Below, in pieces: positions 6,139 to 8,024 of a DNA stretch of 64,000 nucleotides (positions are counted from its first letter, which is position 1; each line of letters opens with the position of its first letter). The translations under genes and the position numbers were made by a program. The stretch covers positions 148,715 through 212,714 of the forward strand of contig NZ_BJYJ01000003.1 in assembly GCF_007991455.1 (NCBI RefSeq), given 5' to 3'. The notes beneath the pieces are model-generated. The model was not told the origin of the DNA, made no database searches, and saw nothing but the letters and a program-made list of their open reading frames with translations. Source of the stretch: Chryseobacterium hagamense. GTDB taxonomy: Bacteria; Bacteroidota; Bacteroidia; Flavobacteriales; Weeksellaceae.

Positions 6139-6460
6139 TTATTGCTGGAATTAGTCTTATAAAAAAATTGATTACTGAAAAACGTGCGCATCACCTGAGG
6201 TTCCGCCCCTTTATGAATTCCGTGTTTACAGGAACGGATTTCATACTGCCACTCTCCCATTTCGGGATATGCATTTTATAATGATGATCCTGAACTTATT
6301 TTCAGGAATGACTCCGGTTGATTTTTACGGCAATTAAAAAGACAGGTGCGTCCATATTCTGTTCTCCGTTGTGCCTTTTTCCGGCGGATCATCAGATGAC
6401 GGAACTGATCCATGCTAACGGTTTTCAGAGTTTAATTTCATCTTTGTTATGTTTTTATAA

Positions 6461-6612
6461 AAGTTTTTTACCACTCCGTCCTGTAGCTGCAGCAGACCGT
6501 TCTTTCTGAAACCAGGTGATGATGCTGATGGTAACAGGGTTCAAAATTCACTTTTTTTTAATTCCTGTGAAAGTTTTTTGCCTCCCCGGTTCTGTAGCTG
6601 CAGCAGACATCC
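6461..6612. promoter_or_regulatory. Two copies of an imperfect direct repeat of about 38 bp in the divergent promoter region. The shared 17-bp core is CTGTAGCTGCAGCAGAC and contains the palindrome GCTGCAGC.
   Basis: The 17-bp core is identical at 6481-6497 and 6592-6608. The flanks are similar (aaagttttttaccactccgtc / aaagttttttgcctccccggtt). Spacing between copies is 111 bp. The repeats lie between the minus-strand fibre-like operon and the plus-strand AAA+ ATPase gene. Confidence 0.5.
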
Positions 6613-6689
6613 GCCGTATACAAATTAATTACCGTATGATTTAAGATTTTAAGTATATTGAACCTTTAAATTGATGACTGCAGGAATAC

Positions 6690-8024
6690 ATGAAGGCAGG
6701 ATCATTTATTAATATTAATTTATTCAGACCACAAGCCATGACGTTCACTTCAGCTTTTCCGGAAATCCTTCAGACCGCTTTCTCCCTGTATTTCGGACAG
6801 GAAACCCGCTATAAATCCCTTTCCGAAATCCCTCTGGACGGAAAAGCATTATCTGATCTTACCGGACAGAACCTGACCCGGGACGAACACATCATTTTGC
6901 TTCTGGCCCTGATGCCGCACCTCAATCCGCAGGCTTTGGATCTCTTTTTTGTGCGTAATGCAAACCTTGACCGCCCCTACACCGAATTCGGAGGCTGGCA
7001 GGGAATCTCCCATACCGGATTTCTGCCGACCGGAGAAACAGCTGCCTTTTTATTAACCATCGGCAATCCTGACAACCGTCTGCAGATCATGCAGTTATTC
7101 AGCAGGACACATTGGTTTTACCGGCGGAACATTTTACGGCTGAAAGGACAGGGAAAAGACGAACCTTTTCTGAGCGGAAAGCTTTGCCTATCAGAAGAAT
7201 TCCTGGCAAAGGTGCTGGAGAACGGAACATCCGGGACTGGTTATGGTGCTGAAACTCCTTGCAAGCGCATAACTACTCCTTCAGATTGGGAAGATCTGGT
7301 CGTTCCTGCTGAAGTGTTGGAGGAGTTGGAAAACGTTTCCGGATGGTTGCGGCATGATGAAGAAATCCGCTCACGCTGGAATCTGGAAAAATACATCAGG
7401 CCTGGTTACCGCTGCCTTTTTTACGGTCTGCCGGGAACGGGAAAAACTTTTGCGGCAGCATTATTGGGAAAACGGTCCGGCCTGGAAGTCTACCGCATCG
7501 GTTTATCGGTACTCACTTCCGGGGAAACCGGTGAAACGATTAAAAACCTGGCTGAAATCTTTGATCTGGCCAGACAGAGAGACTGGATTTTACTTTTTGA
7601 CGGGGCAGAAAGGCTTTGCGGAGAAGATCATGAAAATTCCTTATTGGACAATCGCCGGATCAATGAAGAAATCCTCACTTGTTTGCTTGGGTGCACGGAA
7701 GATTTCCCTGGTCTTGTTATCATGGCTGCATCGCTACAGGACGATCCGGACCAACGGTTTTTACGGTATTTTCATTCAGCTCTTCATTTTCCGATGCCCG
7801 ACCGCAATGCCCGGATCAAACTCTGGCGGCAGATGATTCCCGGAGAATGGCTGTATGAAAATAAGGAAGCTCTTATACAGACCGCCGCCGAAGCAGAATT
7901 GCCTCCCGGAAGTATGGTAAATGTCATCCGTCAGTGCGCCGTCAGATTGTTAACTTCTCATCAGAACCGGCTGACGGCCGAAATTCTGAATGCAGCTTTG
8001 GCTAAAGAGAAAGCAAAATATTAA
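6690..8024 (+). CDS. AAA+ ATPase, 444 aa; unknown N-terminal domain plus a C-terminal classic AAA module
   Basis: Walker A YGLPGTGKTF. Walker B-like ILLFDGAE. Sensor and arginine-finger-like residues follow. The N-terminal domain of about 200 aa has no obvious motif. Confidence 0.8.
   Translation: MKAGSFININLFRPQAMTFTSAFPEILQTAFSLYFGQETRYKSLSEIPLDGKALSDLTGQNLTRDEHIILLLALMPHLNPQALDLFFVRNANLDRPYTEFGGWQGISHTGFLPTGETAAFLLTIGNPDNRLQIMQLFSRTHWFYRRNILRLKGQGKDEPFLSGKLCLSEEFLAKVLENGTSGTGYGAETPCKRITTPSDWEDLVVPAEVLEELENVSGWLRHDEEIRSRWNLEKYIRPGYRCLFYGLPGTGKTFAAALLGKRSGLEVYRIGLSVLTSGETGETIKNLAEIFDLARQRDWILLFDGAERLCGEDHENSLLDNRRINEEILTCLLGCTEDFPGLVIMAASLQDDPDQRFLRYFHSALHFPMPDRNARIKLWRQMIPGEWLYENKEALIQTAAEAELPPGSMVNVIRQCAVRLLTSHQNRLTAEILNAALAKEKAKY

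Follow-up and report, generated by a model that had tools for sequence, protein, structure and literature searches.

A putative tandem promoter unit and a probably orphan, catalytically degenerate injection-system ATPase beside a phage-type fibre cassette in Chryseobacterium hagamense

In the 64,000-nucleotide stretch of Chryseobacterium hagamense DNA considered here (contig NZ_BJYJ01000003.1, positions 148,715 to 212,714; hereafter the window), a gene for a AAA ATPase diverges from three minus-strand genes that encode fibre-like proteins of 276, 337, and >1430 aa, and the spacer of ~600 bp between them (6139-6737) carries two copies of a short direct repeat. This arrangement raises two intertwined questions, namely, which of the two transcription units the repeat serves, and what an ATPase of this kind does beside fibre genes. 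The initial annotation proposed that the two copies form a paired binding site that coordinates both divergent promoters, and that the protein resembles the accessory ATPases attached to contractile injection or phage-tail-like loci.

The joint answer to which we attach moderate confidence is that the ATPase is an orphan, degenerate member of a family that otherwise belongs to extracellular contractile injection systems (eCIS), and that the repeat is a tandem promoter unit of the fibre operon. No description of either feature, the orphan ATPase or the repeat unit, was found for Chryseobacterium in the searchable literature.

Repeat units and the genes that they precede

The two copies in the window share an identical 17-mer, CTGTAGCTGCAGCAGAC, at 6481-6497 and 6592-6608, 111 bp apart. 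No third copy of this core occurs in the 64 kb even when three mismatches are allowed (chance expectation 0.04), and a profile of the whole unit recovers only the same two copies in the window; two copies instead of hundreds is not what a mobile mini-repeat of the repetitive extragenic palindromic (REP) type would give. With their flanks (AAAGTTTTTT plus 11 or 12 nt) the copies measure 38 and 39 bp, as originally described, but the block that is truly alike extends over ~72-75 nt per copy, with 51 of 72 positions identical, versus 16 of 39 in the spacer between the copies, and with a period of 111 bp. The "38-bp repeat" is thus best read as the most conserved part of two diverged copies of a tandem unit of ~112 bp. 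Because identity is this much higher in the block than in the spacer, the pair appears to stem from an old tandem duplication, after which the functional part alone was kept. On the window, the tandem-repeat program TRF reports no such array, as the two copies have diverged too far. Small open reading frames (ORFs) in the spacer (6318..6509, and a 45-aa minus-strand ORF near 6413) were rejected as genes, as they are not conserved as ORFs in the orthologous locus L012.

The full extent of the unit emerged from a wider sample. A scan of metagenomes for paired cores returned mostly chance matches or coding tandem repeats, and the eight genuine loci that remained after filtering aligned into a repeated unit of ~75 nt, not 38. 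Searched with a profile of this unit, Chryseobacterium-type DNA totalling 315 kb yielded 49 units, grouped into 27 arrays of one to four copies each. One array, in L136 (Chryseobacterium sp. MEBOG06), is young: TRF reports a period of 112, 3.7 copies, and 91% identity. In 25 of the 27 arrays the next ORF has a fixed orientation, a start 34-494 nt off, and a product headed by the motif [YWF]F[EQK]xGxxPTxx[QE]F (hereafter the N-motif); it is always on the strand opposite to that on which the repeat had first been read. The two exceptional arrays are a decayed island in the metagenomic lineage L023 and a unit that lies at a locus edge.

The opposite flank follows no such rule. It is occupied by the ATPase gene in four loci, by a lipoprotein gene in L028/L130, and by the end of another fibre gene in L115/L120. 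The arrays of L028/L130, L115/L120, and L139 have no ATPase neighbour, as is true of most arrays; in L045 and L066 the sequence stops ~200 nt or less from the array and is uninformative on this point. Since orientation is fixed toward the N-motif gene in nearly every array while the opposite flank varies, the unit would belong to the fibre-type genes and not to the ATPase. Units and cassettes also occur together on phage DNA, behind tape-measure, tail, and endolysin genes. The association between unit and N-terminal tag marks phage-type fibre or receptor-binding genes in Chryseobacterium genomes, all of which are currently annotated as hypothetical.

These distributions bear directly on the proposal that the two copies are a paired operator through which one regulator coordinates the ATPase and fibre promoters, which we now consider improbable. 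The pair does lie in a divergent spacer of 600 bp; the orthologous spacers of L012, L013, and L006/L007 have the two copies too, again exactly 111 bp apart, so that pair and spacing are kept in four orthologous loci with the ATPase on the other side, and spacings of 111-113 bp place the copies on about the same face of the DNA. Synonymous sites between the window and L006 are saturated, yet the repeat pair and its spacing persist. A coordinating operator, however, fits poorly with a copy number that ranges from one to four, with an orientation set by the N-motif gene, and with an opposite flank that differs between loci (here a lipoprotein gene, there the end of another fibre gene, elsewhere still other genes) and mostly is not an ATPase gene. 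The distance from the pair to the ATPase start also changes, from 146 nt in the window to 260 nt in L006. Furthermore, the palindrome GCTGCAGC that had been singled out within the core is specific to the window lineage, most copies having GTTGCAGT instead.

Dispersed repeats offer a second comparison. Like REP sequences, bacterial interspersed mosaic elements (BIMEs), and miniature inverted-repeat transposable elements (MITEs), the unit is short, repeated, and intergenic. Unlike them, it has two copies in 64 kb, its palindrome is not conserved, and all 49 copies in the 315 kb fall into the 27 arrays, 25 of them upstream of one class of gene; the REP/MITE explanation was rejected on these grounds.

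A third possibility is that the units are recombination or cassette-boundary sequences which, together with the conserved 5′ coding region, allow fibre cassettes to be exchanged between phages and islands. Identical unit types do flank variable cassettes on a phage contig and on chromosomes, the fibre genes are conserved at the 5′ end and divergent downstream, and in L042 a unit stands directly after a fibre-gene stop codon. We nevertheless hold this role to be doubtful: no recombinase gene adjoins the arrays, the units are direct tandem copies and not inverted pairs, and conservation is strongest in short boxes with promoter-like spacing, not over the whole length. A recombination role would at the same time be compatible with promoter function.

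Promoter-like anatomy of the unit

The consensus of 45 distinct units, read on the fibre-gene strand, is ..TaCTGcAaCTACAGaAt-N9-c.aAAAACTTTcata..A...aaAaAAa..tgAAnTTTGaac. Along that strand each unit presents, in order, a CTGCARCTACAG box, an A-tract, a weak -33 element (CTTTy), 19 nt, and a -7-like box, GAAwTTTG. The CTGCARCTACAG box is invariant across units (upstream-box sequence of the units, CTGCAGCTACAG), and GAAwTTTG is the most invariant block toward the 3′ end. In flavobacteria the -7 box recognised by sigma-A is TAnnTTTG, at -12 to -5 (PMC9723704). The unit's tGAAnTTTG and CTTTy, separated by a 19-nt spacer, fit the geometry of Bacteroidota sigma-A promoters, in which the -33 TTTG lies ~19-21 nt upstream of the -7 TAnnTTTG, but depart from their consensus at the T of the -7 box and at the G of the -33 element. 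Unlike housekeeping promoters, however, the unit has a large conserved upstream box and is multiplied in tandem. With the -7-like box so placed, the CTGCARCTACAG box would lie at about -70 to -55, the usual position for an activator.

Both window units are assigned to the minus strand. Unit 1, proximal to the fibre operon, spans 6427..6499 (core 6481-6497) and has a -7-like box at 6432-6439, which reads GAAATTAA and is degenerate in this lineage. Unit 2, distal, spans 6535..6611 and has the core at 6592-6608, which is GTCTGCTGCAGCTACAG on the minus strand; by comparison with the consensus, its A-tract plus CTTTC would be at 6569-6579 and its -7-like box, GAATTTTG, at 6542-6549. Predicted transcription starts thus fall near 6534 and 6424 on the minus strand, toward the 276-aa gene. 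The last unit of several arrays leaves 34-75 nt to the start codon, an ordinary length for a leader.

Other promoter readings of the same DNA were tried and rejected. On the plus strand, sigma-54 and extracytoplasmic-function sigma factor promoters were dismissed by eye, with no -24/-12 spacing, and any promoter on that strand would be directed away from the one gene with which the unit is consistently associated. A scan for sigma-70 promoters and terminators gave fewer hits than shuffled sequences; such a scan is unsuited to Bacteroidota.

Alternatively, the element might function at the RNA level, whether as a small RNA or as a structured leader at the 5′ end of the fibre-operon transcript. 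Transcription from the distal unit would indeed run through the proximal one and include it in a leader of ~290-400 nt. We regard an RNA function as very unlikely, however: the spacer has no Rfam match (best E=0.34, far below the gathering score), its folding energies are no better than those of shuffled sequences on either strand (z from -0.97 to +0.95), and a candidate hairpin, TTCAC..GTGAA, shows no compensatory changes across loci when inspected by eye.

Most likely, then, the unit is a promoter module of fibre genes, neither a shared operator nor a REP element. The units would act as tandem, activator-dependent promoters on the minus strand, and a single regulator that binds the upstream box could control fibre-type genes on phage DNA and on chromosomal islands alike. 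At ~75 nt the unit is a compact, conserved, and apparently undescribed cis-element in a group with few characterised regulated promoters; it could serve both as an inducible promoter part and as bait for finding its regulator.

A separate block of ~40 nt is conserved immediately 5′ of the 276-aa start (window 6139-6180; also L134, L135, and L130), with the sequence ..ATCAATTTTwwTnAnAACTAATTyy..ATG on the gene strand. It is present even in cassette copies without repeat units, and may be a second, proximal promoter or a translation-initiation region.

The ATPase, the fibre cassette, and their genomic setting

The ATPase gene occupies 6738..8024 on the plus strand and encodes 428 aa. The ORF of 444 aa originally reported is present (6690..8024), but its first ATG, at 6690, is probably unused: the second ATG, 6738, is the likely start, because the L012 orthologue (86% identical) has an in-frame TAG between the two ATGs and because the C. 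hagamense protein at NCBI, 100% identical to the ORF product, is modelled with 428 aa from the second ATG. A conserved block, ..TTTAAGATTTTAAGTATATTGAACC.. (6640..6675, plus strand), is common to the four orthologous spacers, 60-85 nt 5′ of the start, and might be the promoter region of the ATPase itself.

The protein combines two unlike parts. Its N-terminal domain (6738..7310, aa 1 to ~190) is family-specific and mixed alpha/beta, with a conserved stretch RPYTEFGGWxGxSHxGFLPTGET. The absence of a recognisable motif from the first ~200 aa held up, as these residues have no Pfam match and the domain has no relative in the PDB; a cryptic AAA domain was ruled out, the sequence having no similarity to the AAA module. 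The C-terminal module has the classic-clade AAA fold that had been predicted, in that it is structurally similar to FtsH, Vps4, or p97 D2 and matches Pfam AAA (PF00004) over residues 242-368 (E=1.6e-15).

A large protein search returned 725 homologues, 430-445 aa long. Those that share 38-58% identity with the window protein across ~95% of the length, N-domain included, are encoded inside eCIS loci, and wherever the upstream flank is readable they stand directly after CIS_TMP (tape-measure) and/or eCIS_core (DUF4157) genes. They come from Sphingobacterium (L008), Dysgonomonas (L010), L137, Tannerellaceae (L001), a gammaproteobacterial metagenome-assembled genome (L003), and Fibrobacter (L004), and several of these loci have baseplate (Phage_base_V), PAAR, gp25, and VgrG-type genes further upstream. 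The readable distant homologues are thus not scattered over unrelated contexts. Since these relatives adjoin tape-measure or eCIS_core genes within eCIS loci, the assignment of the window protein to the eCIS cargo-loading ATPases with a single AAA ring and a family-specific N-domain is supported.

The resemblance to injection-locus ATPases therefore stands for the family and fails for this copy, which is attached to no tail-like locus. Among the window ORFs that were compared with core genes of eCIS loci, no homologue of the eCIS core was found, nor was one found in the 10 kb past the fibre genes of the syntenic locus L006, where the island stops after three fibre genes and a GH115 gene lies beyond. 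Tail, baseplate, and head genes were likewise not found near the cassette among the window ORFs compared or scanned and in the L006 flank. On the right side of the ATPase, the Pfam-scanned window ORFs encode two-component and housekeeping proteins.

The catalytic core has also departed from the family. Walker A, GLPGTGKT (7425..7448, within YGLPGTGKTF), is intact. Walker B, ILLFDGAE (7587..7610, within WILLFDGAE), is present in the sequence as first reported and is degenerate against the family consensus ILFFDEAD, with the catalytic Glu replaced by Gly (ILFFDEADALFGKR, FFDEAD, in the eCIS-embedded relatives; ILLFDGAERLCGE, LFDGAE, in the window protein). The pore loop has changed from SKYIGETEKNL to SGETGETIKNL, so that Lys-Tyr is gone (GET for KYI); sensor-1 has changed from LATN to MAAS, with Asn replaced by Ser; and the Arg fingers have changed from FFRRF to FLRYF, RR becoming RY with one finger lost. 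All four motifs are nearly invariant among the eCIS-embedded relatives. The three closest homologues have most of the same losses, although two of the three keep the Walker-B Glu. With Walker A kept and the other four motifs degenerate, the window protein is therefore not a standard classic-clade AAA module, despite its fold.

Loss of these motifs has not released the gene from constraint. The ratio of nonsynonymous to synonymous substitution rates (dN/dS) is 0.19-0.21 for the whole gene, 0.11-0.15 for the N-domain, and 0.24-0.29 for the AAA module; the gene is under purifying selection and not drifting freely, and the N-domain is its most strongly constrained portion. The window copy is probably an orphan, catalytically degenerate member of the family. 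It would bind nucleotide with little or no hydrolysis or threading of substrate, and would act through the N-domain as a holdase or adaptor or else be a relic on a slow path to loss; if the gene persists for a function, that function may be carried by the N-domain.

One alternative is a fully working cargo-loading or unfolding motor for an injection system encoded elsewhere in the genome. Full-length homology to eCIS-embedded ATPases (50-58%), an intact Walker A, and purifying selection all accord with it. We judge it unlikely given the loss of the Walker-B Glu, the pore-loop aromatic, the sensor-1 Asn, and the second Arg finger, and given that a single Glu-to-Ala change abolishes loading by Alg15, the ATPase of the AlgoCIS system; moreover, the gene in L023 is cut to a 25-aa N-terminal remnant beside repeat units. 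In that locus the decayed island (1200-1600) has two intact repeat units and no N-motif gene on the other side.

Another alternative identifies the protein as IetA of an IetAS-type anti-phage defence system, prompted by matches to the PADLOC IetA models (E=9e-17) and to the NCBIfam IteA model (55.8 bits). These matches cover the generic AAA module only, the NCBIfam score of 55.8 compares with a cut-off of 510, no protease partner is adjacent, and much closer relatives are embedded in eCIS loci; this identity is almost certainly mistaken.

The divergent genes are what the term fibre-like had implied. Gene 1 (5308..6138, minus strand, 276 aa) belongs to a family restricted to Chryseobacterium and headed by the N-motif (here ..IIDWFKTGETPTEAQF..), which also heads several other proteins of 246-1069 aa. 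Gene 2 (4283..5296, minus strand, 337 aa) matches PHROG tail-collar and tail-fibre models and shares 83-98% identity with its counterpart, again second in order, in cassettes of this type at other loci. Tail-fibre/tail-collar models of PHROG match the 276-aa protein too; its residues 127-182 match tail-fibre proteins of Campylobacter phages, and its residues 3-51 match a late-module protein, at the end of the structural genes, of Flavobacterium phage fF4. An AlphaFold 2 model of this protein, with a predicted local distance difference test score (pLDDT) of 54.6, is too poor for a fold search. Gene 3 (1..4283, minus strand, >1430 aa) runs past the left edge of the window; it is 2437 aa long in L012, varies between relatives beyond the first ~370 aa, and is internally repetitive, with many self-similar segments of ~100 aa detected by tblastn. 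G+C is 0.36-0.38 over window 1-4000, within this large gene, against 0.42-0.47 in most of the window; low G+C and repetitiveness fit a foreign, phage-type origin.

A 74-kb viral contig, IMGVR_UViG_2905984197_000003 (L138/L139), carries tape-measure and tail proteins, a 924-aa phage protein, an endolysin, and three fibre cassettes, two of which are preceded by repeat units. Judged by these matches, the fibre cassette is of phage type. The endolysin of this contig is 92% identical to a chromosomal endolysin beside the 438-aa ATPase of C. glaciei.

That ATPase represents a second lineage within the genus. Most Chryseobacterium species have an intact paralogue of 436-438 aa, 29% identical to the window protein, which is followed by a lipoprotein gene, the same endolysin, and fibre cassettes. 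Further N-motif genes lie upstream of it, together with Ank and LRR proteins in strain MEBOG06. No eCIS core was found within 10 kb on either side of this paralogue, and a search of viral contigs with the 438-aa ATPase gave no match. Runs of small N-tagged genes stand upstream of the paralogue in L136 (1-9100), L142 (200-9400), and L143 (600-9800), many of them behind repeat units, and adjoin ankyrin-repeat and leucine-rich-repeat proteins and, in C. indoltheticum, an Imm49 immunity-type protein as well. These runs look like a depot of effectors or fibres without structural tail genes within 10 kb.

Another neighbourhood is shared more widely. In L137 (11326-12720), L008 (14050-15240), and L134 (2275-2715), a cell-wall hydrolase is encoded no more than one or two genes past the ATPase, be it GH25 plus muramidase, Amidase_3, or Phage_lysozyme, in eCIS loci and Chryseobacterium clusters alike. 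This suggests a conserved adjacency of ATPase and lysis genes.

Taken together, the joint reading of an orphan eCIS-family ATPase and a fibre-operon promoter unit has to be set against several observations. On the promoter side, the unit departs from sigma-A promoters at the -33 element, which is without the consensus G, and at the first base of the -7-like box, which is G and not T; the proximal window unit has a degenerate -7-like box (GAAATTAA); start codons lie anywhere from 34 to 494 nt past the last unit; and both the promoter anatomy and its strand have been inferred from orientation and consensus alone. On the ATPase side, the close homologues P0003 and P0005 retain the Walker-B Glu, so that loss of hydrolysis would not be uniform across the clade; a dN/dS of 0.2 is compatible with a role as holdase or adaptor and with weak residual ATPase activity alike; and orphan status covers the window and L006, so that an eCIS core or a helper phage could be present elsewhere in the C. 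hagamense genome.

A more far-reaching scenario, to which we give only a small chance, is that in Chryseobacterium an ATPase of injection systems has been co-opted to work with phage-type fibre proteins. The two paralogues, 29% identical, each adjoin clusters of genes that share the N-terminal tag (..YFxTGxxPTxxQF..), many with the tandem promoter module, and neither has tail or baseplate genes within 10 kb to either side. In such a scenario the motif-degenerate window paralogue would serve tagged fibre proteins as a holdase or adaptor that needs no ATP. The chromosomal cassettes would constitute a store of alternative fibres, which the regulator of a resident phage or tailocin would activate in trans, thereby changing the target range of that phage or tailocin.

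Two neighbouring loci deserve brief mention. Just 3′ of the ATPase, a sensor kinase with PAS, HisKA, and HATPase domains (8517-10917, plus strand) is split over three reading frames (8517-8870, 8801-9781, and 9658-10914), and L006 and L013 each encode the orthologue as one protein (785-793 aa); the split in the window points to a frameshifted pseudogene or else to a mistake in the assembly. At 37875-41974 on the minus strand, an ORF of GH3 beta-glucosidase type with a TTG start at 40670 overlaps the preceding alpha-L-fucosidase ORF by ~140 nt, and the true GH3 start is probably further downstream.

Comparison with eCIS ATPases and phage fibre modules

The nearest functional parallel in the same phylum is Alg15 of the Algoriphagus machipongonensis AlgoCIS, which is needed for cargo loading and whose Walker-B substitution E292A abolishes it (bioRxiv 10.64898/2026.05.27.728243). 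Compared by description and locus position, without direct sequence alignment, Alg15 is encoded in an eCIS operon at a position matched by the intact relatives of the window protein, and its predicted hexamer has two separate stacked domains, much as the window family consists of a non-AAA N-domain and one AAA module. The differences lie in the copy studied here: Alg15 requires its Walker-B Glu, E292, where the window protein has Gly, and the window copy, which stands outside any eCIS locus, has further lost one Arg finger, the Lys-Tyr of the pore loop, and the Asn of sensor-1.

Pvc15 of the Photorhabdus virulence cassette (PVC) and Afp15 of the Serratia antifeeding prophage (Afp) are likewise accessory AAA ATPases of eCIS, and they recognise N-terminal signals of their payloads. 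In a plasmid search for annotated Afp15, the named protein was absent among the matches listed. The functional residues of Pvc15 are the hydrolytic Glu E555, the pore loop K528/Y529, sensor-1 N597, and the Arg fingers R608/R609 (PMC11495950); the same set of DEAD, K-Y pore loop, sensor-1 N, and RR fingers is the consensus of the window family. The architectures differ: Pvc15 is built from an N domain, a D1 that is degenerate, and a D2 that is active, and in the window family an unrelated N-domain is joined to one AAA module. Cargo is still stabilised by the ATPase-dead variant E555Q of Pvc15 (PMC11495950), which sets a precedent for an ATP-independent role, though no proof of one for the window protein. 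As eCIS ATPases are being engineered for programmable protein delivery, a natural variant that lacks the Glu and three further motifs and is still under selection offers a way to study roles independent of ATP-driven threading.

The fibre cassette finds its closest counterpart in the tail-fibre modules of temperate phages and tailocins. Although the window cassette stands alone in the chromosome, accompanied only by the ATPase, it shares with these modules the order of its genes, the pattern of conserved 5′ and variable 3′ regions, and its matches to PHROG models and phage tail-fibre proteins.

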